Source: an uncultured Planctomycetia bacterium
Lineage (GTDB): Bacteria; Omnitrophota; Gorgyraeia; Duberdicusellales; 4484-171
Assembly: GCA_964629655.1 (NCBI GenBank)
Contig: CAZVQU010000001.1
Coordinates: forward strand, 548,056 to 612,055
Length of the DNA stretch: 64,000 nucleotides
Direction: 5' to 3'
The position numbers were made by a program, and so were the translations under genes. The notes beneath the pieces are model-generated. The model made no database searches, had not been told where the DNA came from, and was given only the letters and a program-made list of their open reading frames with translations. Below are positions 16,788 through 57,209 of this stretch, one piece after another (position 1 is the first letter of the stretch; each line of letters opens with the position of its first letter).

Positions 16788-16788
16788 A

Positions 16789-30390: not shown

Positions 30391-30418
30391 GGGTGCCATC
30401 AAGGGCACCCTTTTATTT
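30391..30418 (+). terminator. intrinsic terminator
   Basis: Hairpin GGGTGCC-atcaa-GGGCACCC followed by TTTTATTT. Confidence 0.75.
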
Positions 30419-30556
30419 ATAGGGCTTAAGAGACTAAATTCGAAAGAAGGCAAGTAAGACGCAGATCTTTAATATGTGTAGTAATGGGGATCGTGGACTA
30501 CAAAAAAGTAAAATCTTCGCAAGAAAGAGCGGAGTTTTTGTATTTTTAGAAGGATT

Positions 30557-31819: not shown

Positions 31820-31828
31820 TTAAGTATT

Positions 31829-37995: not shown

Positions 37996-38286
37996 ATGAA
38001 GTGTCCGAGTTGCGGTAGCGAGAAGGTGGTGAAGGGTAGAATTTTTAACCAGGCCGATTATGTTTCTCCTCAAGCCTTTTTCAGGCCCAAAGAGCTAAAG
38101 CCCTTTTCATTATTCGGGATAAATATTCGGGTAAAGAAAAATGATTTTGCTGCTTGCGGAGAATGTGGACTTGTCTGGTCGGTAGTTGATGTGGATGAAT
38201 TAACAAAAGTCGTTGCTAAGAGCGGCCGAAAGAATACTAAAGACATGCTCGGGATAAAAGAGAAACAAGAATCGGAGCATGATTGA
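37996..38286 (+). CDS. zinc-ribbon protein (CxxC...CxxC)
   Basis: MKCPSCGSEK...ACGECG. It overlaps the start of the downstream GGDEF gene by 8 nt. Confidence 0.5.
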   Translation: MKCPSCGSEKVVKGRIFNQADYVSPQAFFRPKELKPFSLFGINIRVKKNDFAACGECGLVWSVVDVDELTKVVAKSGRKNTKDMLGIKEKQESEHD

Positions 38287-39121
38287 GCAGGTTCAAAAAG
38301 ACCATCTTACCGGATTTTTTTTAAGAGAAGCCCTAGACTCTTTCCTCGATAAGCTTATATCCGAAGCTGATTCTAAAAACAAGAGTTTTTCAATAGCCCT
38401 CATTGATTTAGATAAATTTAAAAGATATAATGATAAATTCGGCCATCTCTTTGGAGACGAAGTCTTAAAGTATGCAGCCGGGATTTTTCGGTCGACCTTC
38501 TATGGAGACCCTCACCATTATTATCGTTATGGAGGCGATGAGTTCATAATAATATTTCCTGACACTCAAGCCCAAGAGGCCGGCTCTTTCCTGAGACAGT
38601 GTGTCTACAATACCTTCCGGCAACCGTTTGTGTTTAAAAGTAACTTTTACAAAATCACCATGAGCTTTGGTGTTGCTTCATACCCTTGTGATGGCAGAAC
38701 AAGAGAGGAGTTAATCAGGAAGGCTGACCAGGCAATGTATTATTCAAAACATGCCGGCACTAACCATGTTACTTTAGCTGATAACCTTTCTCATCTAAAG
38801 GCACGAAAGTGGGCCATAACGCTCAGCGTTGCGCTAATCCTTGCCTTGGTTGGGCTTATAACCTATAAGTTCGCCTTTAAGACAATTATCAAGCCTACGG
38901 TGCAAGGAGTTAAAAATATAAATATAGTTGCTAAGCCCGGGGATCTAGACCTAGTGGTTCTAAAAAACGGAAGCTTCTATGAAGGAAGAATTATTGAGGA
39001 AACAGATGACATAGTAACGATAAGTTTGTATATGGAAAAGGGCCAAGGCGTCATGGCTTTTAAAAAGGGAGAAGTATTAAAGACGGAACGTGGTAGGAGC
39101 GGTCTGCCCCGACCGGAATAA
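38279..39121 (+). CDS. diguanylate cyclase (GGDEF domain, intact RYGGDEF) with C-terminal TM and extracytoplasmic region
   Basis: DHLTGFFLR...LIDLDKFKRYND..GH..GD...RYGGDEFIII. A TM helix lies around aa 180-200. Confidence 0.8.
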   Translation: MIEQVQKDHLTGFFLREALDSFLDKLISEADSKNKSFSIALIDLDKFKRYNDKFGHLFGDEVLKYAAGIFRSTFYGDPHHYYRYGGDEFIIIFPDTQAQEAGSFLRQCVYNTFRQPFVFKSNFYKITMSFGVASYPCDGRTREELIRKADQAMYYSKHAGTNHVTLADNLSHLKARKWAITLSVALILALVGLITYKFAFKTIIKPTVQGVKNINIVAKPGDLDLVVLKNGSFYEGRIIEETDDIVTISLYMEKGQGVMAFKKGEVLKTERGRSGLPRPE

Positions 39122-42638: not shown

Positions 42639-43040
42639 ATGAGAAAAGCTTTGACTATACCGGAAGTGCTTGTTGCTACGATATTTTTAACGGTTGTGCT
42701 CAGCGGTATTTTAATGCTTTTTATAAATTGCATGTTTTTAAATGAAGCCAATCGTAATTCGACCGTAGCTATTACTCATGCCCAGTATATAATGGAGGAG
42801 ATACGAAGCGTACCCTTTACCTCAATACAGACGATGGCTGATAATGGGGATTGGGATTTAGATGCGACTGAGCTCGAGGCCTCCCCTTATGGCCTGAGCG
42901 TTTTAGATGTTGAAGCAATAGACACAACGGTTACAGCTGTAGGTGATCTTCTCGAGGCGACAGTAGCCGTGAGTTGGCAAGACCGGCGAGGAAGAACCAG
43001 GAGTGATCAACTAACAACCCGAATGGCAGACTATCGATAG
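42639..43040 (+). CDS. pilin-like protein with atypical N-terminus (possible minor pilin)
   Basis: N-terminal KALTIPEVLVATIFLTVVLSGILM resembles a prepilin hydrophobic helix with Glu at +5 but lacks the GF motif. Confidence 0.35.
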   Translation: MRKALTIPEVLVATIFLTVVLSGILMLFINCMFLNEANRNSTVAITHAQYIMEEIRSVPFTSIQTMADNGDWDLDATELEASPYGLSVLDVEAIDTTVTAVGDLLEATVAVSWQDRRGRTRSDQLTTRMADYR

Positions 43041-43049
43041 GAGAAAACA

Positions 43050-43598
43050 TTGGAGAAGCACAAAAGTTATTATGGCAGCAGAAAGGGATTTACCATAATT
43101 GAGATAATGATAACCTTGGCTATTTTTTCGATTGTAATTGCCGCTATACACCAGGTGTTTGTTGCCGGTGAGAAGGTTTGGGATAATGATTTGAGCATGT
43201 TAGATATGCAACAGTCAACCCGTCGCGGGCTTTATTCAATAACAAGGGAGGCCAGAGCAGGCAGCCTTGCTAGCATGAGTGTGGCCGGTGGCTGTGACCA
43301 TATTGCATCTCCAGAGAATTGTACTCAGGTTACTCTTGATACTCCGGCTGAGAACAATATTTTATTCTTTCACGATAACTCTACTAACCAGGTTATTCGC
43401 CAAGATTCATTAGGCGTTCAAAGAATTTTAGCTAGTGATATTACTGATGCCTATTTTTGTTGTGCCCATGGCGATGGTGACTGCAGCTGTAATGCGACTT
43501 ATGATACTTTAGAAGTTCGGCTCCAGGCCGAGAAGGATACTCTAGGACGAACCTTGGATTTTTCTTTAAGGGCAAAAATAAAGGTAAGAAATGATTAA
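43050..43598 (+). CDS. prepilin-type N-terminal cleavage/methylation domain protein (minor pilin, PilW/GspJ-like)
   Basis: KGFTIIEIMITLAIFSIVIAA is the canonical G|FTxxE class III signal. Confidence 0.7.
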   Translation: MEKHKSYYGSRKGFTIIEIMITLAIFSIVIAAIHQVFVAGEKVWDNDLSMLDMQQSTRRGLYSITREARAGSLASMSVAGGCDHIASPENCTQVTLDTPAENNILFFHDNSTNQVIRQDSLGVQRILASDITDAYFCCAHGDGDCSCNATYDTLEVRLQAEKDTLGRTLDFSLRAKIKVRND

Positions 43599-44718
43599 AA
43601 AACGGAAGGCAGTAGCTTTAATAACAGCATGTATTGTAACCGTATTTCTTAGCACAATCGGGATTGCCTTTACTTTCCGCAGTATCCAGGAACGTAATTT
43701 AGCCTCTAGATATGTTGACTCTGTAAAAGCTTTTTGGTTGGCTGAGGCAGCAGCAGCTAAAGGCTATAGTGAGTTAATGAGTAATCCTGCTTATAATGGT
43801 GAGGATTGGACACCACTGGCAGGCGGTAACTACAGAATTATAAGAGGCGTTTCATCTGGGGGTGTTGAGGTCAGAGCCGAGGCCATATCAGGCTCAGCTA
43901 CTCAGGCTTTAAGCTTTACCCTTGCTTTTATCCCTTATCCGTTTGAAAATACTATGTCTGCCGGAGATAGTATTACTTTAGATGGATTTCTCGGCAGCAT
44001 AAGTGTTTTCGGCAAGACCCGGCTCTCAGGAGCATTTTCCAAATCGGGGTTTATTACATCAGCCTGGTTTGAAGATAAAGTAGAAGGTGTAGACCCAGGT
44101 TATACATCTATGCCAGTCTCTGACTATAGCGGTAACGGAACAGCCGATGAATTTAGCGATTTTGTTATTATGGGTCAGGAGGTAGTTGCTGATTATCCGC
44201 CTGAGGAAGTAGTTTATCTGCAGACAAACGGAACCGTAAACATCTTTCCTGATTCGGCCCTAATTGGCAAGAAGGTGATTTTCATTGAAGGCGAGAGTCC
44301 CGGCCAAGGCAGTGCAAACATTTTTTTTGATGCTACCTGGCAAGACCAGGAAGATCTAACAATTATTTCTACCGGTGAGGTTACTTACGTTCAACCCTTA
44401 CAGTTCCAGGAAGATGCCCGTTTGAGCACTGTTTCCTGGGGTGATTTTAGCGAAGTGTCAATTTTCCAAAATGCTCACGAGAGTGTAATCTATACCCACG
44501 ATGATGCCCATTACATGGATATTCTGGATTGGGGCTCTACCACTGGTAATATTATTGCCCAAGATGATATAAGTATATTAGAGGTGATAACTAACGAGAA
44601 GTTTTACTATTCAGACCGCGCCTTTAACGGGGATTTACCGCCGGGTTTTGGCCGTTTGGGTTCAGCGTCAGGTATTTTATCTGACCAAGCAGTAGATTGG
44701 CAGGAGAGATATGATTAG
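43591..44718 (+). CDS. PilX-like type IV pilus assembly protein
   Basis: N-terminal TM plus ...RSIQERNLASRYVDSVKAFWLAEAAAAKG... resembling the PilX N-terminal domain. It lies in the minor-pilin operon. Confidence 0.45.
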   Translation: MIKKRKAVALITACIVTVFLSTIGIAFTFRSIQERNLASRYVDSVKAFWLAEAAAAKGYSELMSNPAYNGEDWTPLAGGNYRIIRGVSSGGVEVRAEAISGSATQALSFTLAFIPYPFENTMSAGDSITLDGFLGSISVFGKTRLSGAFSKSGFITSAWFEDKVEGVDPGYTSMPVSDYSGNGTADEFSDFVIMGQEVVADYPPEEVVYLQTNGTVNIFPDSALIGKKVIFIEGESPGQGSANIFFDATWQDQEDLTIISTGEVTYVQPLQFQEDARLSTVSWGDFSEVSIFQNAHESVIYTHDDAHYMDILDWGSTTGNIIAQDDISILEVITNEKFYYSDRAFNGDLPPGFGRLGSASGILSDQAVDWQERYD

Positions 44719-45184
44719 GAGAAAAGTTGTAGTAGGCATTTTATTATCTTGTTTGGCCATTGGTCTATTTTTATCCCTAAGTAAAGTCAAAGAAGAAGAA
44801 GAGGTTACCCTTAAAGTAAAGACAGAGAAAGAAGAAATAAAGGCAAAAAGGATTCGCCGCGAATTGGTTCCTGATAATCCCGAAGATTACGGCATGATTG
44901 TCTTTGAGCAGAGGGAAGAACCAGTGACCCAGGGGGAGTGGGATGAGTTGTTGGGAGAGAAGGTAAAAAAACTTAAGTCTAAGTCTTCTCTTGACACCTG
45001 GGATAAGCTAGAGAAAGCGGTAAAAGAAAAACCTCAAAAGACCAAGGAAAAAATCAAGGATCTTGACAAAAGACTTAAAGAGGCAGAGGCTGTTTTGAGA
45101 AAAGAGCCAAATAACCAAGAGACACAGAAGAGAATTAAGCGTCTGAGGATGCTTAGGGCTATTTCTCGAAGCCTTGTCCCTTAA
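44711..45184 (+). CDS. Lys/Glu-rich coiled-coil protein with N-terminal TM
   Basis: 157-aa low-complexity KE-rich ORF in the pilus operon. Confidence 0.35.
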   Translation: MIRRKVVVGILLSCLAIGLFLSLSKVKEEEEVTLKVKTEKEEIKAKRIRRELVPDNPEDYGMIVFEQREEPVTQGEWDELLGEKVKKLKSKSSLDTWDKLEKAVKEKPQKTKEKIKDLDKRLKEAEAVLRKEPNNQETQKRIKRLRMLRAISRSLVP

Positions 45185-45313
45185 TTTTTCCCAAGTAGAC
45201 AGACCCCGATACGCTTCCCCCCAATGCCTTAATAGTGGCTAATTGACAGAGATTATAAAAAGTGATAATATTTACACTAAGAAGAAAAGTCTAAATTAAT
45301 AAAGGAGGCAAAG

Positions 45314-46624
45314 GTGAAAGAGAAATTTTCTTTATCTAATTTGAGCTTAAAGAGAAAGGTATGTATTGCCATAGCTCTAGTATCTCTATTGCCGGTAATC
45401 GTCCTTTTTTACCATTTTTCCGGGTATTATGTCTCTTTTTGGACCACTTTAATCCTAGCTGTAGTAGTAATTTTAGGGTGGTGGGTCGTATTTGAAGTTT
45501 TTTCATCTATTATCAAAATCTATACCCGTTCCCGAAATACCCTTGAAGACATAGGGGAAAGCGTTCCGGCTATCCCTGATGAAGTCCAAAGCTTAGAGAA
45601 GATGATTGGTCTTCTTTCCGATAAGGTAAAGAGCGGTTTTGAACAGCTAAGGGATTTTACCCGGATGACCGAGGATTTGAACAAGGAAGTCTCGCGAACA
45701 GTACTTATTTTATCTACTATTCTTCAAGCTAACGATTTATTCTCCAAAGAGGCCCCGGCAGAATCAGTAATTAAGCTAATTATTAACCATCTCAAGCATC
45801 TAATCCGGGCCGAAACCTGTTTTTGCGGCTTAGAAGATAGGGCAAAGGGTAGATTCGCAACAGTAGCCCGAGCAGGCATAGATTCTTTAAGGATCGATAG
45901 CTTTTTTAGAAAGAAAGACAAGGCACTTTCCCATCTTAAGGATATGATCGTGGTCGACAGACGTAATAAGCCAAAAGGTTATTCTTCCTGGATCCAGGAG
46001 TTAGAAGTAAAGAATATTGCTATTGCTCCAGTTAGCACCAAAGGGCGGATTATAGGTTTAATCGGGGTTGGCAATAACGAAGATGATTTCGCATTCAGCA
46101 AGGATGATTTAGAAATCCTAGGCCTGTTTGCCCAAAACGTTACTCTTATCTGGCAACACGAGAGGCTTTCAGAGAAGATCGAAGAGTTAGAGATTGTTGA
46201 CAGCTTAACCGGTCTTTATAACGAGAAATTGATAAAGACAAGATTAAGTGAAGAGATCAAAAGGTCTACTACTTACCAGAGACCTTGTGGGTTTATTGAG
46301 GTAGAGATAGTAAACTACGATGATTTTCGCAAGAAACGCGGGATGATTGAAGCTGAAAAAGTTCTCAAGAAAATGGCTAAGGCTTTTAAAGGGGCCTTAA
46401 GGCCTGTTGATATTGCTGGTAGAACCGGACCGAGTAAGTTAGGGGCTATTCTTATCGAGAGTAACAAAAGACAATCCCAGGAGATTGGCGAAAACCTAAA
46501 AAAGAGCCTGATTGAGGTTTGCGGGCCAGAGGTCAAACTAAAATTTTCTGTGGCAGCAAGCCCGATACATGGAGTTACTGCCCAAGAACTTATGTCATTC
46601 ATTCAAAAATCCAATAATACATAA
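45314..46624 (+). CDS. membrane-anchored sensor with GAF domain and degenerate GGDEF-like domain
   Basis: 2 TM helices. The GGDEF-domain start VDSLTGLYNE is present but the active-site position reads AGRTGPSKLGAIL instead of GG(D/E)EF, so it is likely catalytically inactive. Confidence 0.55.
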   Translation: MKEKFSLSNLSLKRKVCIAIALVSLLPVIVLFYHFSGYYVSFWTTLILAVVVILGWWVVFEVFSSIIKIYTRSRNTLEDIGESVPAIPDEVQSLEKMIGLLSDKVKSGFEQLRDFTRMTEDLNKEVSRTVLILSTILQANDLFSKEAPAESVIKLIINHLKHLIRAETCFCGLEDRAKGRFATVARAGIDSLRIDSFFRKKDKALSHLKDMIVVDRRNKPKGYSSWIQELEVKNIAIAPVSTKGRIIGLIGVGNNEDDFAFSKDDLEILGLFAQNVTLIWQHERLSEKIEELEIVDSLTGLYNEKLIKTRLSEEIKRSTTYQRPCGFIEVEIVNYDDFRKKRGMIEAEKVLKKMAKAFKGALRPVDIAGRTGPSKLGAILIESNKRQSQEIGENLKKSLIEVCGPEVKLKFSVAASPIHGVTAQELMSFIQKSNNT

Positions 46625-46630
46625 GAAATT

Positions 46631-47077
46631 ATGGCAAAATTTCACAAACAAATTGATAAGCCTTTGGGGCAAATTTTAGTAGAGAGGGGTGTTATAAACA
46701 ATGCCCAACTTCAGCAGGCTATAGAAGCGCAAAAACATGGCGGAGGGCTTATCGGAGAGATAATTGTAGAATTAGGGTTTGCAAAAGAAGAGGATATTGC
46801 TTATTGTCTGTCATTGCAATTCGGTTACCCCTACCTTTCTTTAGAGAATTATGAGATATCCCCGGATGTTATAAAAATTATTTCTAAAAATGTTGCCACG
46901 CATTATTGTTTAGTACCTATAGATAAAATAGGAAATACTCTTACAGTTGCCATGGCTAACCCTCTGAATATCCAGGCTATAGAGGATTTAGAGGATGTAA
47001 CCCAGTGTGATATTCAAATATTTGTAAGTACTCCTTCGGACATACGAAGTAGTATAAAACGATTTTCCGGCAAGTAA
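46631..47077 (+). CDS. standalone T2SSE_N / MshEN-like domain protein (candidate c-di-GMP receptor)
   Basis: 148 aa with PLGQILVERGVINNAQLQQAIEAQ, matching the 24-residue MshEN c-di-GMP-binding motif RLGxxLVxxGxIxxxQLxxALxxQ. It also has GspE-N-type ...LVPIDKIGNTLTVAMANPLN. Confidence 0.6.
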   Translation: MAKFHKQIDKPLGQILVERGVINNAQLQQAIEAQKHGGGLIGEIIVELGFAKEEDIAYCLSLQFGYPYLSLENYEISPDVIKIISKNVATHYCLVPIDKIGNTLTVAMANPLNIQAIEDLEDVTQCDIQIFVSTPSDIRSSIKRFSGK

Positions 47078-47105
47078 GACTAACCCCCGAGCTTGGTTAA
47101 GACTT

Positions 47106-48806
47106 ATGAAAAGAAAGAAGTTTGCAGATTATTTGGTAGAACAAAAAGCGCTCAGCCAGGAAGATTTGGATAAAGTCTTAGAGATCCACAAAAAAAAGGA
47201 TGGTTCATTAGTCGAGCTGCTTGTAAAATTGGGCTACCTAAAAGAAGCCCAGCTTGTAGACATTCTATCTGGCTATCTTTCAATCCCACCAATCAGAGTC
47301 CTTAACTTAAATATCCCCAAGAATGTTTTAGGCCTGGTCCCGGAAAGAATGGCCCGGGATTATCAGGTTTTACCAATAGGAAAAATTGGTAATACCCTTA
47401 CTCTGGCTATGGGTGACCCGTTAAATGTTTTAATTATTGATGATATAAAAAATATTACTAAGTGTGAGATAAATCCGATCATAGCTCCGCTTTCTGAGAT
47501 CAGAGAAGCTATCTCTAATTACTATGTCCAAACTACAGAGTCTATTGAGGAGATAATAGAGGGTCAGGATGCTGAGGCTTTAAAGTATATACAAGACGGT
47601 AAAAAAGGAGTTACTCAAGAGGAAATCATCCACTCGATAGAAGAAGCGCCGATATTAAAGTTTACAAATCATTTTCTTAAGGTGGCGGTTGAGGAGAAGA
47701 CATCAGACATATTGATAGAACCCTTAGAGAGTACTAGCAGAATTAGGTTGCGCGTAGACGGTATTTTAAGAGAGGCAGAGACCTTCTCTAAGAAAATTCA
47801 CCCTTTCATAATATCAAGGATAAAGGTAATGTGTAACCTTAATATCTCTGAGCATAGGTTGCCCCAGGAAGGAAGATTCCGAGGAAAGATTTTGGATAAA
47901 AATGTAGATTTTAGAGTATCAATTCTGCCTTCTAGCATGGGCGAGAAGGCTGCAATCAGAGTTTTAGACAAAACCACAGCCCTTCTAAACTTAGACCTTT
48001 TAGGATTCGAGGAAGATGTTTTAAAGAGGATAAAAGAAGATAGCTTAAAAGCTCACGGCATGATTTTAGCTTGCGGGCCGACCGGAGCTGGCAAAACTAC
48101 AAGTTTATATTCGGTAATAAATCATATTTTTAGCCCTGAGAAGAATATCGTTACCGTAGAAGATCCGATAGAGTATCAATTAAAAGGAATTAATCAAGTA
48201 AGCATAAAGCCGTCTATAGATTTGACTTTTGCGACTACCTTACGTTCTATATTGCGGCAGGATCCCGATATAATAATGGTTGGTGAGATCAGAGACGGTG
48301 ATACTGCTGATATGGCTATAAAGTCTGCGTTAACCGGGCACCTAGTCTTGTCTACACTTCATACCACAACCAGCGCCGGTTCAATTACACGGCTTATCAA
48401 TATGGGGGTAGAGCCATTCTTGCTTTCCTCTACTCTCGTCGGAGTCCTTACGCAAAGATTAGTAAGGAAACTCTGTCCTAAGTGCAAGGAGAAGACTGAG
48501 ATGCCTAGTAGCATAAGGGAGAAGTATCTAATTAGCAAAGAGGCTGAGGTTTACAAGGCTAAAGGGTGTAATTCCTGCCAAAAGAGGGGTTATAAAGGAA
48601 GAGTGTCTTTATGTGAATACTTACAGGTTTTACCTAAGATGAGGAAACTAATAAGTATTTCAGCCTCAGAGAGTGTGATAAAAAAAGGAGCCCGAGAGGC
48701 TGGAATGCATACCCTAAGGGAAGACGGAATAATTAAATTAGAAAAAGGAATAACTACCCTAGAAGAAGTATTGAAAACCACAAGTGCTGACGAGCAGATG
48801 AAATAA
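47106..48806 (+). CDS. pilB: type IV pilus assembly ATPase PilB/MshE (paralogue 1)
   Basis: 566 aa with an N-terminal T2SSE_N domain, Walker A GPTGAGKTT, Asp/His boxes and tetracysteine CPKC...CNSC. Confidence 0.9.
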   Translation: MKRKKFADYLVEQKALSQEDLDKVLEIHKKKDGSLVELLVKLGYLKEAQLVDILSGYLSIPPIRVLNLNIPKNVLGLVPERMARDYQVLPIGKIGNTLTLAMGDPLNVLIIDDIKNITKCEINPIIAPLSEIREAISNYYVQTTESIEEIIEGQDAEALKYIQDGKKGVTQEEIIHSIEEAPILKFTNHFLKVAVEEKTSDILIEPLESTSRIRLRVDGILREAETFSKKIHPFIISRIKVMCNLNISEHRLPQEGRFRGKILDKNVDFRVSILPSSMGEKAAIRVLDKTTALLNLDLLGFEEDVLKRIKEDSLKAHGMILACGPTGAGKTTSLYSVINHIFSPEKNIVTVEDPIEYQLKGINQVSIKPSIDLTFATTLRSILRQDPDIIMVGEIRDGDTADMAIKSALTGHLVLSTLHTTTSAGSITRLINMGVEPFLLSSTLVGVLTQRLVRKLCPKCKEKTEMPSSIREKYLISKEAEVYKAKGCNSCQKRGYKGRVSLCEYLQVLPKMRKLISISASESVIKKGAREAGMHTLREDGIIKLEKGITTLEEVLKTTSADEQMK

Positions 48807-48811
48807 TAATC

Positions 48812-50524
48812 ATGACTGTCAAAGAGAAGATATTAGCACAAATTCAGAAAGATAAGAATCTAGACAAAAAGGTGTTTGCTGAAATTAGCAAGAAAACGGG
48901 TAGCTACAAAGAGTTTAGGCAGATGCTTCTAGAGAAGAACCTTATTGATGAAGAAGGATTATTGCTTATCCTCTCCAAAGAGTTGAAAATTCCCTTTTTA
49001 GACTTAAAAAAGTTTAAGGCGCCCCTAAGCAATCAAGAATTTCTTCCCCAAAACATAGCTTCCAAATATAAGGTTTTACCTATTTGCAAAATCGGCAACG
49101 CACTCACTCTTGCCACTGCTAATCCTTTAGATGTTATAGTTTATGATGATATTAAAATTATTACCGAAGCAGATAAGATCGACTTAGTACTCTCTCGAGA
49201 AGAGGATATAGTCAGAAGTTTAAATTCTCTGTATAAGACTACAGAAGATTTCTCAAAGTCCTTTGATGAAACATCTGCCGTTGACGTTCCAGAAGTTAGC
49301 GAGGCTAAAGAAGCCAGTGAGGATTTAGAGAGTTTAGTCACCGAGAGTAAACACCCTCCTATTGTAAGGGCTATCGATCTGGTTGTTTATAGCGCTTTGA
49401 AGAAAAGGGCATCTGATATTCATGTAGAGCCTTACGAGGATAAGCTATTAGTAAAGTATAGAATCGATGGCGCTTTGAATGAAGAATTTAGCTTCCCTAA
49501 GCGAAACCAGCAGGCGGTAGTAGCCAGGCTGAAGATAATTTCGGGATTAGATATAACTGAATCACGCATGCCCCAAGATGGTAGGTTTAAAGTAAAGTTT
49601 GAGAATAGAGAGATAGATTTTAGGGTTTCTAGTCTTCCTACTAATTTTGGAGAGAAATTTGTTTTGCGAGTCCTGGATAGGAAAAGTCTATCTGTAGGAT
49701 TGGAAAAATTAGGCTTTTCCGAAAAACCTTTAAAATTATTTGAAGAGGCGGTAGCAGCGCCTTTCGGAATAATCTTAGTAACCGGACCCACCGGTTCAGG
49801 TAAGTCAACGACTCTCTATTCAATAATCAGCCAAATAAATAGTCCGGAAAGGAATATAGTAACTATTGAAGATCCGGTTGAGTACCACTTAGAGGGGATA
49901 ACCCAGATTCAGGCTAATGCCGATATAGGCCTAACATTCTCGGCCGGATTGCGGTCGGTATTGCGACAATCTCCGGATATTATAATGGTAGGAGAGATAA
50001 GGGATTCAGAGACTGCCGATATTGCCATTAAGGCTTCTTTAACCGGAGAAATTATTTTTTCTACCCTCCATACCAATAGTGCTGTTGGAGCAATCAGCAG
50101 GTTAAGGGATATGGGAACAGAGCCTTTTCTCCTGGCCTCATCATTAGTTGCCTTAACTGCTCAAAGATTAGTAAGAAAATTATGTCCAAAGTGTAAAGAA
50201 AAGTATAAAATGGATAAAGAGACTTTGGAGAGGGCAGAGCTGGATTCTTTCTGTCGTGACCATAAGGGAGTGAGTGAGTTTTACCGGCCGAAAGGGTGCC
50301 CTTATTGCGAGCATAGTGGGTATCGAGGTAGAGTTGCTATCATTGAGGTCATTCTCCTAGATGACAAAATAAAAGAAATGATTGTCGAAAAACTTTCTGA
50401 AAGTGATATTATTGAATATGCCAGGAAGTTTAGGGGGTATAATTCTTTAAGGGAAGATGGATTATTGAAGTGTTTAGCCGGAGAGACCTCTATTGAGGAA
50501 GTCATAAGAGTAACATCAGAATAA
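48812..50524 (+). CDS. type IV pilus assembly ATPase PilB/GspE (paralogue 2)
   Basis: 570 aa with an N-terminal T2SSE_N domain, Walker A GPTGSGKSTT and CPKC...CPYC. Confidence 0.9.
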   Translation: MTVKEKILAQIQKDKNLDKKVFAEISKKTGSYKEFRQMLLEKNLIDEEGLLLILSKELKIPFLDLKKFKAPLSNQEFLPQNIASKYKVLPICKIGNALTLATANPLDVIVYDDIKIITEADKIDLVLSREEDIVRSLNSLYKTTEDFSKSFDETSAVDVPEVSEAKEASEDLESLVTESKHPPIVRAIDLVVYSALKKRASDIHVEPYEDKLLVKYRIDGALNEEFSFPKRNQQAVVARLKIISGLDITESRMPQDGRFKVKFENREIDFRVSSLPTNFGEKFVLRVLDRKSLSVGLEKLGFSEKPLKLFEEAVAAPFGIILVTGPTGSGKSTTLYSIISQINSPERNIVTIEDPVEYHLEGITQIQANADIGLTFSAGLRSVLRQSPDIIMVGEIRDSETADIAIKASLTGEIIFSTLHTNSAVGAISRLRDMGTEPFLLASSLVALTAQRLVRKLCPKCKEKYKMDKETLERAELDSFCRDHKGVSEFYRPKGCPYCEHSGYRGRVAIIEVILLDDKIKEMIVEKLSESDIIEYARKFRGYNSLREDGLLKCLAGETSIEEVIRVTSE

Positions 50525-50525: not shown

Positions 50526-51740
50526 ATGAAAATATTTTTTTACAACATCAAAAATAAAGAAGGTAAAGTGTTAAAGGGAATGATTGAGGCTGAGTCCCAA
50601 GAAAAAGCAATAGAGCACTTCCAGAAGGAAGGGCTCATAATTCTGTCAATCAAAGAGACTAAGAAGAAGATAAAAGTAAAGGCAAAGGGCAAGGTTAAAG
50701 TTGATGATTTAGTGGTTTTCTCCCGCCAATTCACAACCTTAATCGAGAGCGGAATACCAGTCGTTGAATGTTTGAGTATCTTAGAAGAGCAAGTAGAAAA
50801 TCCCTATTTTAAAGGGGTTATCAATCTAATACTCAAGGATGTTCGTGAAGGAGCAGCTCTTTCCGATGCTTTATCTAAACATAAGGATGTATTTCCTGAT
50901 ATCTACCTAAGTATGGTAGAAGCAGCCGAATTCTCAGGGAATTTACCTGAAATATTAGACCGGGTATCAATTTATTTAGAGAAGAGCAGCGCTTTGAAGA
51001 AAAAGGTAACTTCAGCTCTTTACTACCCGGCTATTATTATATTAATGGCGGTAGGTATAACTGGATTTTTAGTGTTTAAGGTAATCCCTACCTTTAAGGG
51101 GATATTTGCATCTTTGGGAGGCAAATTGCCTCTGCCGACCCAAATTTTAATAAGTTTTTCTGATGCTTTGACCAAGAAAGAATCTGTTGTTCTCCTAATC
51201 GCGCTCATTTTCGGGGGTTTCTTTAGCATCAAGGCTTACATTAATACTCCTAAGGGTAAGAAAGTCTTTCATAGACTTATACTTAAACTTCCAGTAGTCG
51301 GAGGACTAATAAGAAAAATGGCTATTGCTAAATTTTCCCGGACATTCTCTACTCTGGTAAAAAGTGGCGTATCCATAGTCAAATGTTTAGAGATTGTAGG
51401 CAAAACCTCGGGAAATAAAATAGTAGAGGATGCTGTAATGGAGTCCAAGATTGCCATCCAGGAAGGCCAACCTATTTCTGTTCCTCTTGAGAAGACCGGA
51501 GTATTTCCGACCATGGTTATTAAGATGATATCTATAGGCGAGAGGAGTGGTCGGCTAGAGGAGATGCTGTCAAAGATAGCTCAGTTTTACGAGGAGCAGA
51601 CTGATGCTATGGTGGCAGGCCTAGCCAGCCTTATAGAGCCCCTGGTAATAGCTTTTTTGGGCATTATTGTAGGGGGAATAGTCATCTCTTTATTCCTGCC
51701 AATAATAAAAATGACCCAATTTATAGGCGGAATGAGCTGA
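50526..51740 (+). CDS. pilC: type IV pilus platform protein PilC/GspF
   Basis: 404 aa with two T2SSF repeats and 3 TM helices. Confidence 0.9.
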   Translation: MKIFFYNIKNKEGKVLKGMIEAESQEKAIEHFQKEGLIILSIKETKKKIKVKAKGKVKVDDLVVFSRQFTTLIESGIPVVECLSILEEQVENPYFKGVINLILKDVREGAALSDALSKHKDVFPDIYLSMVEAAEFSGNLPEILDRVSIYLEKSSALKKKVTSALYYPAIIILMAVGITGFLVFKVIPTFKGIFASLGGKLPLPTQILISFSDALTKKESVVLLIALIFGGFFSIKAYINTPKGKKVFHRLILKLPVVGGLIRKMAIAKFSRTFSTLVKSGVSIVKCLEIVGKTSGNKIVEDAVMESKIAIQEGQPISVPLEKTGVFPTMVIKMISIGERSGRLEEMLSKIAQFYEEQTDAMVAGLASLIEPLVIAFLGIIVGGIVISLFLPIIKMTQFIGGMS

Positions 51741-51742: not shown

Positions 51743-51771
51743 TTGACATTCCATGCCCCCTGTGGTATATT
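51743..51771 (+). promoter_or_regulatory. sigma70-type promoter (TTGACA-17-TATATT) for pilin gene 1
   Basis: TTGACA at 51743-51748 and TATATT at 51766-51771, about 100 nt upstream of the ATG. Confidence 0.5.
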
Positions 51772-51876: not shown

Positions 51877-52296
51877 ATGAGAAAAGGTTTTACATTAGTT
51901 GAGATTATGATCGTTGTTGCCATTATTGCTCTTTTGGCAGCAATAGCTATTCCAAACCTTCTAAGAGCAAGAGTAAACGCTGCCCAAGCTTATGCCCAGG
52001 CTGCTTTGAGAACTATATCTACAGCTTACGAGAGCTACGCTTCAGCCAATGCCGGAAGTTACAATGAGACTCTGGCTAATTTGGCAACCGTCGCTGTACA
52101 CGACCCAGTTTATCTTAATCAGAACTTTGCAGCTTGTACAGCAGGAGCTCCTTGTCAGAATTACTCATTTGCCTGTACTCCTGCTGCAGGAAGCTATACT
52201 TGCACAGCTACCGGCCAGGGGGCTATCGCGGGGAAAGCAAACAACTATCAGGTTGTAACCGGAGGGAACCTAACTTCAACCGGAACCGGCTCATAA
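51877..52296 (+). CDS. pilA: type IV major pilin (prepilin)
   Basis: MRKGFTLVEIMIVVAIIALLAAIAIPNLL class III signal, and a C-terminal Cys-containing D-region. Confidence 0.85.
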   Translation: MRKGFTLVEIMIVVAIIALLAAIAIPNLLRARVNAAQAYAQAALRTISTAYESYASANAGSYNETLANLATVAVHDPVYLNQNFAACTAGAPCQNYSFACTPAAGSYTCTATGQGAIAGKANNYQVVTGGNLTSTGTGS

Positions 52297-52321
52297 TTAA
52301 CTTCAAAGGATTCAATTCTAA

Positions 52322-52352
52322 CCGCCTCTTTGCAAAAAGAGGCGGTTTTTTA
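52322..52352 (+). terminator. intrinsic terminator after pilin gene 1
   Basis: CCGCCTCTTT-gcaaaa-AGAGGCGG followed by TTTTTT. Confidence 0.75.
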
Positions 52353-52416: not shown

Positions 52417-54411
52417 ATGAGTCTCGAAAACAAAACAAAATTTAATACTACTATTGCCGAAGCCTCTAAGATAACAACAGGCCTGACCTTTCTTTTGATA
52501 TTCTTAGAGTCTTTAGGGAATTACACCTTTTTTTATAATCATTTTCCCCGCAGAGGCTTCTTTACCATTATCTTTAATACCACCATATTAAAGTTTATCA
52601 GCTTGCCAATATTGCAACTTACTCTGGTTACTTTTTCAGTATACTTTTTCGTGATTTTCTTCTTTATCTATACGCTTTTCTTATTGAAAGAAAACTTATG
52701 CTTAAACGGCAAAAAGGCTAATTATTTTTTCTTCATATTTTCGGTAATAAGCATCTACATAGCTCTCTATGCTTGCTATGGCTTAAATGGATTTTTATGT
52801 CCCCATTCGCAAGAACGACATCCCTTTCTTTATGAGACATTTTTTTTCCTAGAAAATAATTTTTATCAGCCTTTACCAGTTTGGGTCAAGATCAGTTACT
52901 ATCTCGCTTTTTTTTATTGGCTGGGAATATTTATATTTACCCTAAAAAAAGCAAAACGAAGGGCACTTCTGATTTCAATGCCAATAATCGCTGCGTTTAT
53001 TGTAGGCCTTTCTTTGCTGGTCTCTAGTTTTCTTCCGATTAGAGAGTTTAAAAAGAAGGATAATATTATTTTTATTGGCATAGATTCACTTCAATACAAC
53101 CAGCTTTCTCAGGATTGGGGGTACGGGAAAGATTTAGCTCCCAATATCTATGAGTTTCTAGAGGACTCAACTTGCTTTATGAATGCCTGGACCCCCTTTG
53201 CCAGAACCTACCCCTCCTACAATAGCATATTGACTGGCCGCTACCCGATAAACAATGGAGCCAGGGCAAATTTAGTCCAGGACCATCGTCTCAGCTCAGA
53301 CAATTTATACTTAGGAGATGTTTTAAAAGAAAGGGGCTACTATAGACTGCACTGCACTGATGATGTACGATTTAGTAATGTCGGGGAACAACATGGTTTT
53401 GATGAGGTGTTTAGTCCCCGTAAAGACATTGCTGGCCTTTTAGCTACGGCTTTTTATGATTATGCTTTTTGTAACATAATGATTCAGAAGGATATTTTGC
53501 CATGGTTTTTCAGCCCTGTTTCCTATAACCGGGCCCATATTGCCTACAATCCTAAAGGCTTTATAAGGGCTGTGGCTAGGCGCATCAACAGTCTTCCCAG
53601 GGATAGGCGCCAATTTATTACTATTCATTTATGCGCCAACCACCAACCATATTCTTCCTCATATCTCTATGAGCGGGACCAGACTTTAACAGATCCCTCT
53701 GAGCGGTGTATAGCCATGGTTGATGATCAGTTTAAAGAGCTGATCCAATATCTTAAGAGGAGTGGGTTGTATGATAAATCAAAGATTGTATTGTTATCTG
53801 ACCATGGGTGTGGGTGGAGTGATAAGGAAATTAACTTAACTCATGGAAGTGATTTTTATTCTCCCTGGGCCAACAGGATAGTTCTTGGATTTCACCCTAA
53901 CTTAAAAGGTGAATTTCCCCGAAGAATCACCAATTTAGCAAGAAGCATAGATATTTACCCTACAATTCTTGAGATGCTAAATATAGACATACCTGAAGAT
54001 ATAGACGGTAGGAGTCTGTTGCCGTTAATGCGAGGGGAGGAAGAAGATCCGCGAAGATTATTTGCTGAATCAGGATATTCTTTTCGTATTCATTTTGGCC
54101 AAGAGATTATGGTCGATCCCAAAAGCATTCGTTCCCAGATAAAGCGCTTTAAGGTAGACTCTGAGACCGGCTTTGTCTATGTGCGCGATGAGGATTACCA
54201 GGAGATTATAGATAAGAAGTGGTATATGCTAATAGATAAAGATCAGAGATTAGCATATAATCCTTTCCTGGATATTGCCGAAGTGTTTAGAATAGATACG
54301 GAATCCGGAGAAGATATTCCATCTGTGCCCCAAGGGCAAGATTCACAGCTATATTCGGAGAGAGGAAAAGGACTGCTAAGAGAGCTTAAGAGACATTTTA
54401 AGCTAAGGTGA
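52417..54411 (+). CDS. polytopic membrane protein with sulfatase / alkaline-phosphatase-superfamily domain (LtaS/EptA/PptA-like)
   Basis: About 7 N-terminal TM helices, then IIFIGIDSLQYNQLS... and a metal-binding-like DHG (LLSDHGCGW). It sits between the two pilin genes. Confidence 0.65.
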   Translation: MSLENKTKFNTTIAEASKITTGLTFLLIFLESLGNYTFFYNHFPRRGFFTIIFNTTILKFISLPILQLTLVTFSVYFFVIFFFIYTLFLLKENLCLNGKKANYFFFIFSVISIYIALYACYGLNGFLCPHSQERHPFLYETFFFLENNFYQPLPVWVKISYYLAFFYWLGIFIFTLKKAKRRALLISMPIIAAFIVGLSLLVSSFLPIREFKKKDNIIFIGIDSLQYNQLSQDWGYGKDLAPNIYEFLEDSTCFMNAWTPFARTYPSYNSILTGRYPINNGARANLVQDHRLSSDNLYLGDVLKERGYYRLHCTDDVRFSNVGEQHGFDEVFSPRKDIAGLLATAFYDYAFCNIMIQKDILPWFFSPVSYNRAHIAYNPKGFIRAVARRINSLPRDRRQFITIHLCANHQPYSSSYLYERDQTLTDPSERCIAMVDDQFKELIQYLKRSGLYDKSKIVLLSDHGCGWSDKEINLTHGSDFYSPWANRIVLGFHPNLKGEFPRRITNLARSIDIYPTILEMLNIDIPEDIDGRSLLPLMRGEEEDPRRLFAESGYSFRIHFGQEIMVDPKSIRSQIKRFKVDSETGFVYVRDEDYQEIIDKKWYMLIDKDQRLAYNPFLDIAEVFRIDTESGEDIPSVPQGQDSQLYSERGKGLLRELKRHFKLR

Positions 54412-54476: not shown

Positions 54477-54899
54477 ATGGATAGAAAATATACAAAAAAA
54501 GGGTTTACCCTTGTTGAGATTATGATTGTAATCGCTATTATTGTTATAGTAATAGCAATGACTAGCGTTAATCTCGTCAGGTCAAAAACGACTGCGGTTG
54601 AAGCCAACGCCCAAGCTACCTTAAAAACAATAGGCACTGCAATGGAGTCTTATTCCGGTGTGACTGGTGGGCGATATCCCCAGGGTATTGATTTAAGCCA
54701 GTTATATGATCCTGACCCTAAGTATATCAATAAAGATTATGTTGCCGATTGCACCACTGGTTCTCCTTGCCAAGGATATGCTTATAGTTGCGTTTTAGCC
54801 TCATCAGGTTACACCTGCACAGCGACTCCTGACGAAAATTACACCGGTGCTCGAACTTACCAAATTGTGACCGGAAGCAAATTGACAACGGTTGAATAA
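54477..54899 (+). CDS. type IV major pilin paralogue 2
   Basis: KKGFTLVEIMIVIAIIVIVIAM. The C-terminus is paralogous to pilin 1 (GSPCQGY..SC....GYTCTAT). Confidence 0.85.
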   Translation: MDRKYTKKGFTLVEIMIVIAIIVIVIAMTSVNLVRSKTTAVEANAQATLKTIGTAMESYSGVTGGRYPQGIDLSQLYDPDPKYINKDYVADCTTGSPCQGYAYSCVLASSGYTCTATPDENYTGARTYQIVTGSKLTTVE

Positions 54900-55120: not shown

Positions 55121-56119
55121 ATGGATTTAACCTTCCTACAAAATAAATTTGTAAAAAAAGAAGTTGAGAAATTTGTCGCAATTAACCTAGGAGAGTACTA
55201 TATAAAAGGGTTAATTGTTGAGGCCGGCAAAGTTACAGATTACTTTTTAGCCAAGAGAGAAGATTTATCGACCACGATAAAAAAGCTTTGGGCCGAAAAG
55301 AAGATCTCGGTTAAAAAAGTAAAGGTATCAGTCAAAAATCCGGCCTGTTTAGTCAGATACTTTCCTTTTCCTAAGATGGAGAAGAAGAAGCTAAGCCAAG
55401 CCCTCTTCTACGAGATGAACAAATTCATTCCTTTTGCTTCCGATAAGGTATACTTTGATTTTTCTGTCCTCAAAGAGAATTCTTCCGCAGAACTATCGAT
55501 ATTGCTTGCAGTAGCCAAGAAGGAATTTATCGATAATATTTTAGAGTCTTTTGGGAAGGTTGGCTTGAGAGCAACTGAGGTTAATCTGGACAGCATATGT
55601 CTTACTAATCTCTTTTTAAATAATTACCAAGATATCAAAGATGTAAATTCTTGTATATTAGATATCGGGTATAATTTTTCTACCATGACTATTGTAAATA
55701 ATGGTATTCCTTTTCTTACCCGAGATGTGAAGTTCAGCGCAAGAGAGGTATTTCAGATTTTATCGCGCATAAAAGGCCAATCTCTTGCTGACATAGAGAA
55801 AGATCTATTCGCTTCCAAAGACAGTAGCGAGTTTCTAAAGTCAACCCAGGATAGTATCTTAAGCTTTTGTAAAGAGCTGAAGAGCTCCTTTGATTATTTT
55901 GAGGTGAATAAAAGCGAGCCAATAAATAAATTATACCTTAGCGGAGGCTTAGCTTCAGTGAAGGGCATAGAGAATGTTTTCATCGAGGCTCTGGATATCG
56001 AGGTAGAGATATTAAGACCTTTTTTTGAAAAGGATGAAAAGCTTGATAAAGTCTTCTCTAGCAAAGAATTTAATATTTTTAAGAATAGCTTTTCAGTACC
56101 TTTTGGTTTGATTCTATGA
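55121..56119 (+). CDS. pilM: type IV pilus assembly protein PilM (actin-like ATPase fold)
   Basis: 332 aa starting the pilMNOPQ order, with an FtsA/PilM-like fold. Confidence 0.8.
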   Translation: MDLTFLQNKFVKKEVEKFVAINLGEYYIKGLIVEAGKVTDYFLAKREDLSTTIKKLWAEKKISVKKVKVSVKNPACLVRYFPFPKMEKKKLSQALFYEMNKFIPFASDKVYFDFSVLKENSSAELSILLAVAKKEFIDNILESFGKVGLRATEVNLDSICLTNLFLNNYQDIKDVNSCILDIGYNFSTMTIVNNGIPFLTRDVKFSAREVFQILSRIKGQSLADIEKDLFASKDSSEFLKSTQDSILSFCKELKSSFDYFEVNKSEPINKLYLSGGLASVKGIENVFIEALDIEVEILRPFFEKDEKLDKVFSSKEFNIFKNSFSVPFGLIL

Positions 56120-56679
56120 AGAAGATAATCATAAACTTAAGCCCTCAAAAAGAGACCGCTGCAACTGCCCTTTTGCAAAGAGTAGTCTCTTATACATCTC
56201 TGGGGGGATTAACTGCTGCCCTTGTTTTAGTACTAATCATATTCTTACAGATGTTTATCATTAAACAGACCTACGATTGTTCAAAATACAATAAGAAGTG
56301 GGAGGCATGGGAGAGTAAGTATAAGGAAATGAAGGAGATAAAGAAGGGAATAGCTAAACTAGAGAAGGTGAAAAACAAGCTAGAAGAAATCGCTACCCCC
56401 AAGTATGACATTGTTCTTATCCTTGAAGGTATCTTCTCTTCTCTGCCTAAAAACGTATGGTTTGAGGGTTTAGATTTTGAGAAGGGGGTCATTAGTTTAA
56501 GGGGTTATGTTGTAAAATGGAGAGAAGATTATCTGGTTTCCGTCGATAGTTTCATAAATTCTTTACGGGAACAGGAGTACTTTTCTTCAAAGTTTAAGAA
56601 GGTGAATATAAAAGAGTCTAAAAGATCAAGCTTCAATGGCGTCGAGACGCTAAAATTTATTATCGAATGCAAAAAATAA
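56116..56679 (+). CDS. pilN: PilN-like bitopic protein
   Basis: N-terminal TM, coiled coil, positioned after pilM. Confidence 0.6.
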   Translation: MKKIIINLSPQKETAATALLQRVVSYTSLGGLTAALVLVLIIFLQMFIIKQTYDCSKYNKKWEAWESKYKEMKEIKKGIAKLEKVKNKLEEIATPKYDIVLILEGIFSSLPKNVWFEGLDFEKGVISLRGYVVKWREDYLVSVDSFINSLREQEYFSSKFKKVNIKESKRSSFNGVETLKFIIECKK

Positions 56680-57209
56680 ATATAGATAAACCAACTTTGG
56701 GTTTTATTGTTGTGGCAGCCATTCTGGTGGTTGAGTTGCTTGTTATATTTCCCTGGGAGGTCAGCAAAATAGGGGCTTTGACTAGAAGAGGAAATAAGCT
56801 TATTGAAAAGCTTAACGCTATTGAGAATGAATGGCCGAGAAAGGAGCAATACCTAGAAAGCAAAGAGTTATTAAAAAAGGAGATTCAAAGAGCCCGCGGA
56901 AAGTTTATTGTCCGCGATCAAGAGTCTAAGGCACTTTCGTTTATATCCGTCAGCAGCAAAGCTTTTGGAATCGAAATCAATCTCCTTACACCCGGAGATT
57001 TAAAAAGTTATACCAAGACAAAGGTCGGTAACTTTAAATATCTACCGATTAAGGTCAAAGCAAAGGGGAATTTTCATAATTTAGCGATGTTTTTAGATCA
57101 CCTTAGCGATAGCCAGTATTTTTTCGAAGTTAAAAAGTTAACTATATTGTCCGGTTCTCCTTATAATTCAGTGGAGATAATGATATGCGGAGCTGTTGCA
57201 GTAAAATAA
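56667..57209 (+). CDS. pilO: PilO-like bitopic protein
   Basis: N-terminal TM plus periplasmic domain, positioned between pilN and the secretin. Confidence 0.55.
   Translation: MQKINIDKPTLGFIVVAAILVVELLVIFPWEVSKIGALTRRGNKLIEKLNAIENEWPRKEQYLESKELLKKEIQRARGKFIVRDQESKALSFISVSSKAFGIEINLLTPGDLKSYTKTKVGNFKYLPIKVKAKGNFHNLAMFLDHLSDSQYFFEVKKLTILSGSPYNSVEIMICGAVAVK

Follow-up and report, generated by a model that had tools for sequence, protein, structure and literature searches.

How could a type IV pilus motor respond to cyclic di-GMP (c-di-GMP) when the receptor domain for this messenger is encoded as a small protein of its own, directly in front of two tandem extension ATPases? This question is raised by positions 45314-50524 of a window of 64,000 nucleotides (the window being the whole stretch of DNA that was analysed, from contig CAZVQU010000001.1 of assembly GCA_964629655.1), which belongs to an uncultured bacterium placed in the Omnitrophota. 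Four close-set genes lie here on the + strand with intergenic gaps of 6, 28 and 5 bp, and the gene for the platform protein PilC follows 1 bp further. The region is the motor operon of an Omnitrophota type IVa pilus. Our reading, to which we assign a probability of roughly 0.6, is that the operon encodes a detachable c-di-GMP-sensing subunit of a PilB1/PilB2 motor, together with a second c-di-GMP receptor that uses an I-site. The features on which this reading is built are as follows.

45314..46624, + strand: transmembrane protein with a GAF domain and a degenerate GGDEF domain, 436 aa (Pfam GAF_2/GAF and GGDEF)
46631..47077, + strand: standalone MshEN protein, 148 aa (Pfam MshEN, PF05157, 72.7 bits)
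46661..46819, + strand: 53-residue c-di-GMP signature, codons 11-63 of the 148-aa protein (NF053729 match and motif scoring)
47106..48806, + strand: PilB1, PilB-class extension ATPase, 566 aa (Pfam T2SSE, 423 bits, with an MshEN/N1 domain)
48812..50524, + strand: PilB2, second PilB-class ATPase, 570 aa (Pfam T2SSE, 448 bits, with an MshEN/N1 domain)
50526..51740, + strand: PilC platform protein, 404 aa (Pfam T2SSF, 209 bits; NCBIfam PilC and GspF models)

We scored the 148-aa protein against the MshEN site described by Wang et al. 2016 (PMC5013675). This site is made of two 24-residue motifs, RLGxx(L/V/I)(L/V/I)xxG(L/V/I)(L/V/I)xxxxLxxxLxxQ, with five residues between them, and the same paper gives a relaxed search form, [RKPN]hGxxhhxx[GAS]hhxxxxhxxxhxx[QNKRYWST]. 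We observed that motif I (residues 11-34) reads PLGQILVERGVINNAQLQQAIEAQ and agrees at 9/11 strict and 11/11 relaxed positions, that the spacer KHGGG (residues 35-39) has the exact length of five residues, and that motif II (residues 40-63) reads LIGEIIVELGFAKEEDIAYCLSLQ, with 7/11 strict and 10/11 relaxed positions. Overall, 16 of the 22 strict and 21 of the 22 relaxed positions are present. The NCBIfam model NF053729 ('c-di-GMP_motif') matched residues 11-63 over its whole length (1-53/53) with 63.3 bits, against a cut-off of 38. An earlier note on this DNA had described a standalone MshEN protein of 148 aa with a near-perfect c-di-GMP motif, and this was confirmed with the exception of the position-1 Arg; the peptide that it quoted is real and corresponds to motif I minus its first residue.

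The Gly at position 3 is present in both motifs (G13 and G42). In MshE, the backbone amides of these Gly3 residues read the guanine edge (PMC5013675), and in the V. cholerae protein G11L abolishes binding while G40I weakens it 72-fold (PMC5013675, supplementary Table 1). At position 1, the 148-aa protein has Pro11 (after Lys10) in motif I and Leu40 in motif II in place of Arg. The position-1 Arg stacks on guanine in MshE, and altering charged residues, including Arg9, changed the affinity of MshE no more than about fivefold (PMC5013675). The signature was near-invariant in 121 and in 49 family members. Within the clade of the window, Lys10-Pro11 and Leu40 hardly vary either; a more divergent clade carries Arg or Lys at position 1 of motif I.

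An AlphaFold2 model of the 148-aa protein, built from 25 family members, had a predicted local distance difference test score (pLDDT) of 89.8. It showed helices at 12-18, 24-37, 41-47 and 53-64 followed by an alpha/beta unit, i.e. a four-helix bundle with a T2SSE_N1-type subdomain, which is the MshEN fold. The best Foldseek match of this model was 5HTL, V. cholerae MshE(1-145) with c-di-GMP (template-modelling score 0.77-0.82, root-mean-square deviation 2.4 A); the GSPII domains of Thermus PilF came next and then the Xanthomonas PilB N-domain from the PilZ complex. From the signature and the predicted fold, we consider it likely that the 148-aa protein binds c-di-GMP.

Could this open reading frame (ORF) simply be the N-terminus of PilB1, split off by a frameshift? 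We rejected this, since the ORF in the window lies in another frame than PilB1 and closes with a TAA stop, and since it is a separate ORF in 41 loci; the gap to PilB1 is 28 bp in the window and up to ~180 bp in relatives. A database search returned 768 homologues at E<=1e-5. Among the best 120 of these, nearly all were about 145-160 aa long and 67-90% identical (three are 202-218 aa), and every named one was Candidatus Omnitrophota, names being attached to only a minority of the database homologues. A search of representative sequences likewise gave many short MshEN-only proteins; 4/10 of those checked carried names, and all 4 were Omnitrophota. In public databases the family goes under 'hypothetical protein' or 'type IV pilus assembly protein PilB'.

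When we examined the two ATPases, both aligned over their full length to the PilB model TIGR02538, with 569.8 bits for PilB1 and 596.2 bits for PilB2. Both scores are under the equivalog cut-off of 675.65, and the GspE model TIGR02533 scores nearly as high. As judged from these scores, PilB1 and PilB2 are PilB/GspE-class ATPases and not PilB equivalogs by the NCBI threshold. Their closest solved relatives are the Geobacter and Myxococcus PilB proteins. Walker A, the Asp box, Walker B (of the atypical form with the catalytic Glu) and the tetracysteine site are conserved in both paralogues, and PilB1 has the canonical form of each of these motifs and of the His box. PilT-type features were absent: neither protein has an AIRNLIRE-type C-terminus or a length of 340-360 aa, and the PilT subfamily model scored far under its cut-off on both. 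The Pfam matches, motifs and lengths thus agree with the earlier description of two tandem PilB-class ATPases with N1 domains, not PilT-like, directly downstream of the MshEN gene.

The N-domains of PilB1 and PilB2 were scored in the same way, as the earlier note had proposed. Against 21/22 relaxed positions in the 148-aa protein, PilB1 keeps 17/22; its two Gly3 residues are replaced by Ala and Val and its Gly10 by Lys. PilB2 gave no match to NF053729 and has no recognisable c-di-GMP motif. The orthologues showed the same pattern. Gly stands at position 3 of both motifs in 49/49 standalone proteins; among the PilB1 proteins 0/46 have the pair, and T/V, S/V, M/Q and others are found instead. 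The median number of relaxed positions is 21/22 for the standalone orthologues and 13/22 for those of PilB2. This Gly pattern would be expected if c-di-GMP sensing had passed to the detached protein. The proposal that the detached domain supplies the c-di-GMP sensing gains support from it (49/49 versus 0/46), and also from a fusion of MshEN with PilB1 that is described below.

We then asked how the two ATPases are related to each other. PilB1 and PilB2 are 41.5% identical over their full length. A neighbour-joining tree was built from the ATPase cores of 41 loci and rooted with PilT as the outgroup, and in this tree the first-position and second-position genes form two reciprocally monophyletic clades with 41 members each. 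The mean identity is 0.65 and 0.69 within the two clades and 0.47 between them. The reciprocal monophyly places the duplication before all sampled Omnitrophota lineages. A recent duplication, or redundant copies of one ATPase, can be ruled out on the basis of this monophyly and the 41.5% identity, and simple redundancy of the paralogues, which would have undone the earlier interpretation, was not borne out. The PilB1-then-PilB2 order and the adjacency of the two genes were found in 41/41 loci, with junctions that often overlap or span 1-5 bp.

One further difference between the paralogues was seen in the His box. In PilB2 (residues ~409-419, window 50036-50068) it reads TGEIIFSTLHT, the first His being replaced by Glu, and this Glu is found in at least 80% of the 41 PilB2 orthologues (L008-L061) as TGE(L/I)I.STLHT. 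PilB1 and the solved GspE/PilB proteins read TGH at the same site. In Geobacter PilB, this first His is H413; it lies where the adjacent subunit makes contact and packs there with H420 around T411 (PMC5424180). The His-to-Glu change is compatible with a specialised subunit interface in PilB2, which is not shown by it.

To see how widespread the arrangement is, we scanned genomes, one per species, with family-specific peptide patterns, so that only this family could be found. The scan returned 50 loci, all from Omnitrophota metagenome-assembled genomes, a few of them evidently mislabelled. Ten loci (L008-L010, L014, L015, L018, L020, L024, L025 and L031) carry the titles 'uncultured Planctomycetia bacterium' or 'Methanosarcinales archaeon', and these are probably taxonomic mislabels or contaminated bins. 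ORFs were called in all loci and classified against the proteins of the window; starts in the related loci are longest-ORF calls, and intergenic distances there are approximate. The MshEN gene is followed by two full-length ATPases in 41 of the 43 loci with enough downstream sequence. Where enough upstream sequence was available (47 loci), the gene directly before MshEN encodes the membrane GAF-GGDEF protein in 39 and is pilT in 5; in 3 it is neither. Housekeeping genes further upstream (DUF212, YkuD, accA, padR) are also syntenic. MshEN is the best conserved of the five motor-operon proteins: averaged over the 32 loci in which none of the five genes is incomplete, identity to the protein of the window amounts to 73% for MshEN, 68% for PilB1, 68% for PilB2, 69% for PilC and 52% for the GAF-GGDEF protein.

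The MshEN-PilB1-PilB2-PilC order is therefore the norm in the Omnitrophota and not an oddity of one genome, and, as it recurs in dozens of independent genomes, it is no chance arrangement. The earlier note had called the arrangement uncommon; this stands against the characterised model systems, but not within the Omnitrophota, where it was found in 41/43 loci. A separate observation concerns the complete Omnitrophota chromosome CP070797.1 (L005/L029). Its motor operon is broken: the first ATPase stops short at roughly 300-375 aa, and the genes that come next are unrelated and run on the other strand. The GAF-GGDEF and MshEN genes are still intact.

We also looked for a retraction ATPase. A tblastn search with both ATPase cores found no third PilB/PilT-like ATPase in the 64-kb window, in line with the earlier statement that none is present in the locus. 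In a second Omnitrophota clade (L053, L055, L058-L061), the gene immediately before MshEN encodes a PilT of 358 aa with the motif AVRSLIREQK. The order in this clade is (GGDEF-like)-PilT-MshEN-PilB1-PilB2-PilC, and it lies downstream of mreBCD-pbp2-rodA instead of accA-padR. The phylum has retraction machinery, and in the second clade the MshEN gene is its neighbour. The absence of a retraction ATPase thus applies to the locus and the window and should not be carried over to the pilus system as a whole. That one PilB paralogue might replace PilT was rejected as a general case, since both paralogues are found as well in the clade whose operon includes pilT.

Two fusions bear on the partner of the detached protein. 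In L065 (7001-9298, P0250) MshEN is fused to PilB1 in a protein of 765 aa, which is followed by PilB2 and PilC, and in L058 (112-1671, P0207) PilT is fused to MshEN in a protein of 519 aa. These may serve as Rosetta-stone evidence for the partners of the detached MshEN. Architectures of the (MshEN)2-4-T2SSE type are known from Clostridia, Deinococcus-Thermus and Nitrospiraceae (Wang et al., PMC5013675), and when we scored Nitrospirota (MshEN)2- and (MshEN)4-T2SSE proteins, their domains scored on the profile of the standalone family like true members. From these comparisons we favour the view that the detached protein would correspond to an additional MshEN module at the N-terminus of PilB1; the link to PilT is a real alternative.

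The first gene of the operon encodes the 436-aa protein with two N-terminal membrane helices, a minimal loop between them, helical linkers, a GAF domain and a GGDEF domain (Pfam; AlphaFold2 pLDDT 75.7). The best Foldseek matches of its model were cyclases of the GAF/PHY-coiled-coil-GGDEF type. Alignment to active cyclases puts GPSKL in the place of the GGDEF signature and shows the metal- and substrate-binding Asp, Asn and Asp to be replaced. The GGDEF motif is missing in 43/43 orthologues, and the signature positions vary freely, so the protein encoded at 45314-46624 does not qualify as an active cyclase. The I-site R363-P-V-D366, in contrast to the signature, is held among the 43 orthologues: R363 in 35 (with Lys in 3 more), D366 in 42, G369 in 42 and R370 in all 43. 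The dead catalytic site together with the conserved RxxD I-site leads us to read this protein as a receptor, and it is probably a second, membrane-anchored c-di-GMP receptor and not only a sensor. The earlier note was correct in describing a membrane protein that combines a GAF with a degenerate GGDEF domain, but 'sensor' alone falls short of the retained I-site (42-43/43 at D366 and R370). PelD binds c-di-GMP by the same logic, with a dead GGDEF domain and a retained RxxD (PMC7112168). Membership of the PelD family was rejected, as no sequence or fold match to PelD was obtained, and only the analogy is kept. Homologues (P0392-P0511) are named 'diguanylate cyclase' or 'sensor domain-containing diguanylate cyclase' in public databases, a label that the replaced residues make doubtful.

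Taken together, we propose the following mechanism. c-di-GMP, made by cyclases such as the protein encoded at 38279..39121, would bind the 148-aa protein, and the loaded protein would serve the extension motor in trans as its sensory N-terminal module. It would dock most likely on PilB1, or on a PilB1/PilB2 complex, as extra MshEN/GSPII domains do in cis, either with its N1-type half or by forming a pair with the degenerate N-domain of PilB1. Docking would promote productive engagement with PilC/PilM and would couple extension at the single platform to the c-di-GMP level. The GAF-GGDEF protein, which would be unable to make c-di-GMP, would serve as a membrane-tethered receptor or scaffold and provide a second, localised input. 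PilB1 and PilB2 would cooperate on one platform and would not be spare copies.

Several observations weigh against this proposal. Pro at position 1 of motif I fits the published relaxed motif, but Leu at position 1 of motif II falls outside it. PilB1 passes the NF053729 cut-off narrowly (40.9 versus 38), and may have residual, weak c-di-GMP binding of its own. A homologue of the GAF-GGDEF protein in the divergent clade (about 25% identity) is without the I-site Arg (e.g. TEID in L060). Two loci (L029 and L041) keep the MshEN gene with no adjacent ATPases. The MshEN gene adjoins pilT in the second clade and is fused to it once, so the partner could be the retraction motor or the exchange of PilB and PilT. 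Finally, each of the two fusions is a single contig and could be an artefact of assembly or sequencing.

In a first alternative, which we regard as unlikely, the detached MshEN protein would not activate PilB1 but set extension versus retraction by binding PilT or the PilM/PilC docking site; depending on c-di-GMP, it would either block the retraction ATPase or, as an N1-domain decoy, compete with the N1 domains of PilB. The PilT-MshEN-PilB1-PilB2-PilC order in five independent loci and the one contig with the PilT-MshEN fusion fit such a switch, as does the persistence of MshEN in loci with broken ATPases. In its C-terminal half, the 148-aa protein has a subdomain of the T2SSE_N1 type, the module that contacts GspL/PilM-type partners in solved complexes, and its model gave weak Foldseek matches to 2BH1 and 4PHT. 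However, the clade of the window keeps MshEN with no adjacent pilT, and the MshEN-PilB1 fusion and the cis (MshEN)n-PilB proteins of other phyla implicate the extension ATPase. Characterised MshEN domains are reported to promote extension in MshE, which also counts against a retraction switch.

A second alternative concerns the make-up of the motor. To our knowledge, all characterised PilB motors are homo-hexamers. It is conceivable, but in our estimate improbable, that PilB1 and PilB2 form an obligate mixed, hetero-hexameric motor with MshEN as a third, exchangeable subunit, whose c-di-GMP-loaded form docked on PilB1 chooses the occupant of the platform. The occupant would then be the mixed ring or, where pilT adjoins, PilT, a point on which we are equally tentative, and the His-to-Glu change in PilB2 would be an adaptation of a non-equivalent subunit interface. 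The differential gating of two motors that the earlier note had raised is speculation, a PilB1/PilB2 hetero-complex being as compatible with the observations.

It is also very unlikely that the 148-aa protein is a non-binding structural adaptor whose motif residues merely hold the four-helix bundle together. Such an adaptor would account for the lack of a position-1 Arg in either motif and for the near-invariant Leu at position 1 of motif II, and degenerate, non-binding MshEN domains are known (e.g. XpsE). The loss in the XpsE type, though, hits exactly the Gly and Gln signature positions, while in the 49 orthologues the other signature positions are held, including both Gly and both terminal Gln. 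The NF053729 cut-off is exceeded by 25 bits, and the operon starts with another c-di-GMP-related protein.

That the two ATPases are separate homohexamers for different filaments or functions (one ATPase per pilin, or a pseudopilus like that of type II secretion beside a true pilus) and that MshEN gates only one of them, as in the differential gating of the earlier note, has little chance of being right: the window does have two pilin genes and ExeA-like and GspB-like components, an 83-aa segment of the PilB2 core scored 121 bits to GspE versus 105 to PilB among solved structures, and only PilB1 was seen fused to MshEN, but there is a single PilC, a single PilMNOP set and a single secretin, many relatives with a single pilin gene keep both ATPases, and the adjacency in 41/41 loci with tight junctions suits stoichiometric co-production better.

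We compared the preferred reading, a detachable c-di-GMP-sensing subunit of the PilB1/PilB2 motor, with known systems. V. cholerae MshE, the Myxococcus and Chloracidobacterium PilB proteins and Clostridium PilB2 share the receptor fold, the two-motif signature and the ATPase class, and presumably also the logic that c-di-GMP licenses extension. In these systems, however, the receptor is covalently part of a single ATPase, whereas in the Omnitrophota it is a separate protein beside two ATPases that are without the critical glycines. Thermus thermophilus PilF and the (MshEN)2-4-T2SSE ATPases likewise have more than one MshEN/GSPII module per motor. The 148-aa protein matched the PilF GSPII domains with a summed E of 9.6e-45, and these domains made up Foldseek matches 3, 4 and 8-17. 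The standalone protein and PilB1 together amount to an (MshEN)2-T2SSE protein cut in two. Unlike in PilF, the modules are separate ORFs, in different reading frames and with a stop between them, in the window and in 41 related loci (only L065 is fused), and the second ATPase is extra.

FimX (with or without PilZ) in Xanthomonas and Pseudomonas shares the concept of a separate c-di-GMP receptor that acts on the PilB N-domain, and the model of the 148-aa protein also matched the PilB N-domain in the PilB-PilZ complex (7LKM/7LKO). But FimX is a degenerate EAL protein with a PilZ adaptor, while the Omnitrophota locus uses MshEN and is not a FimX/PilZ system; the ORFs of at least 80 aa that we scanned between 37 and 64 kb contain no EAL or PilZ domain. 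PelD shares with the 436-aa protein the order of transmembrane, GAF and degenerate GGDEF parts, the dead catalytic site and the retained RxxD. It differs in that no PelD chain matched at E<=1, none was in the top 50 Foldseek matches, and no pel genes were found. The small Pseudomonas aeruginosa protein PA3740 is an ATPase-less, MshEN-only receptor like the 148-aa protein; the supplement of Wang et al. (PMC5013675) counts it among the c-di-GMP-binding proteins and connects it with swarming. The literature that we read does not tie PA3740 to a pilus ATPase operon. The N1 half of PA3740 is highly diverged; the Omnitrophota protein has a canonical N1 (Pfam MshEN, 72.7 bits).

What else does the locus encode? 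PilC, prepilin-type pilins, PilM/N/O/P and a secretin are all present alongside the motor genes, which is the context of a type IVa pilus. The further features are listed below.

38279..39121, + strand: candidate diguanylate cyclase, 280 aa (Pfam GGDEF, 129 bits; TIGR00254, 133 bits)
42639..45184, + strand: four small genes (133, 182, 375 and 157 aa), minor-pilin-like
45243..45271, + strand: promoter-like site TTGACA-17-TAATAT with TG (consensus scan only, no evidence of function)
51877..52296, + strand: Pilin A, 139 aa (own promoter-like site at 51743-51771; strong terminator-like hairpin at 52320-52347)
52417..54411, + strand: polytopic membrane protein, 664 aa, with a sulfatase/alkaline-phosphatase-family domain, between the two pilin genes
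54477..54899, + strand: Pilin B, 140 aa
55121-56119, + strand: PilM
56116-56679, + strand: PilN-like
56667-57209, + strand: PilO-like
57185-57550, + strand: PilP/GspB-like protein
57547-59055, + strand: secretin
59089-59886, + strand: ExeA/MshM-like AAA ATPase (TIGR03015, 296.7 bits, under the cut-off of 324.5)
59883-60389, + strand: membrane protein of 168 aa, no family match

The promoter-like site at 45243..45271 lies, according to the consensus scan, 43 bp 5' of the first gene of the motor operon. As pattern matches only, the promoter-like sites and the hairpin are consistent with a five-gene motor operon, and Rfam and tRNA scans gave no matches inside it. Among the minor-pilin-like genes upstream, an N-methylation motif is present in the 182-aa protein, and the hydrophobic N-terminus of the 133-aa protein is prepilin-like; the presence of these genes varies among relatives, as judged from synteny. 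A prepilin peptidase gene was not identified in the 64-kb window. The PilM-PilN-PilO-PilP-secretin order is conserved in relatives.

The candidate cyclase at 38279..39121 has an intact GGDEF motif (YRYGGDEF) and is apparently active by sequence; it is without an RxxD I-site. It is a possible local source of c-di-GMP, predicted from this motif, 6 kb upstream and outside the operon. Its order is unusual for a cyclase: the GGDEF domain comes first, a membrane segment lies behind it, and a short domain forms the C-terminus.

Two other parts of the pilus region deserve mention. The 664-aa sulfatase-family protein is found among the relatives only in L011 and L014, i.e. it is a lineage-specific insertion; it gave no specific family match and may be a pilin-modifying (phospho-form) transferase. 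An ExeA/GspA-like ATPase and small proteins with weak T2SSB (GspB) matches are embedded in this type IVa pilus locus. Components of the ExeA/GspA and GspB types are usually linked to secretin assembly in type II secretion and MSHA systems.

Outside the pilus region, the window holds a replication-origin neighbourhood at 6159-17616, where gyrA, gyrB, dnaN and dnaA occupy the - strand and yidC, parA and parB come after them on the + strand, and the GC skew changes sign at about 12-16 kb. At 19799-34081, four tRNA genes (Cys, Leu, Val and Asp) abut a 570-aa large serine recombinase on the - strand. The low-GC stretch after the recombinase (32-36% versus about 41%) encodes a sigma-70-family factor, a 1909-aa CHAT-protease/TPR protein, another TPR protein and a 750-aa membrane protein. 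From its gene content and composition, this segment has the look of an integrated island. A PyrR-binding RNA element (Rfam RF00515, 59 bits versus a gathering score of 54) was found at 2736-2843 on the - strand, upstream of a pyrimidine-biosynthesis gene (aspartate carbamoyltransferase, 1246-2187).

How much of this is new? MshEN control (MshE, PilB, PilF), receptors acting in trans (FimX/PilZ), an ATPase-less MshEN protein (PA3740) and a GGDEF domain that keeps only its I-site (PelD) are already known. What is new is the combination of a detached MshEN protein that seems fully competent, two ancient PilB paralogues without the site and a degenerate GGDEF protein with an I-site, in one operon that is conserved across the phylum. 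We found no description of a standalone MshEN protein with two PilB ATPases in the literature on standalone MshEN or on Omnitrophota pili, PilT and c-di-GMP, a coverage that mostly leaves aside subscription journals.

The Omnitrophota are ultra-small, uncultivated bacteria that are thought to be predators or parasites, and type IVa pili, which are nearly universal among them, have been proposed to serve in host attachment (PMC10066038). The main text of that study makes no mention of PilB, PilT or c-di-GMP. For annotation, the findings mean that both current labels mislead, 'hypothetical protein' or 'PilB' for the 148-aa protein and 'diguanylate cyclase' for the degenerate GGDEF protein. The locus offers a natural 'split' MshEN-PilB with fused counterparts in the same and in other phyla, and is well suited for asking how c-di-GMP binding at an N-domain reaches the ATPase ring and whether two PilB paralogues share one platform. 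A mixed PilB1/PilB2 motor, if true, would be a new motor architecture and of higher interest. For the organisms themselves, the motor operon would be a concrete and testable route by which Omnitrophota cells could time the extension of their pili.

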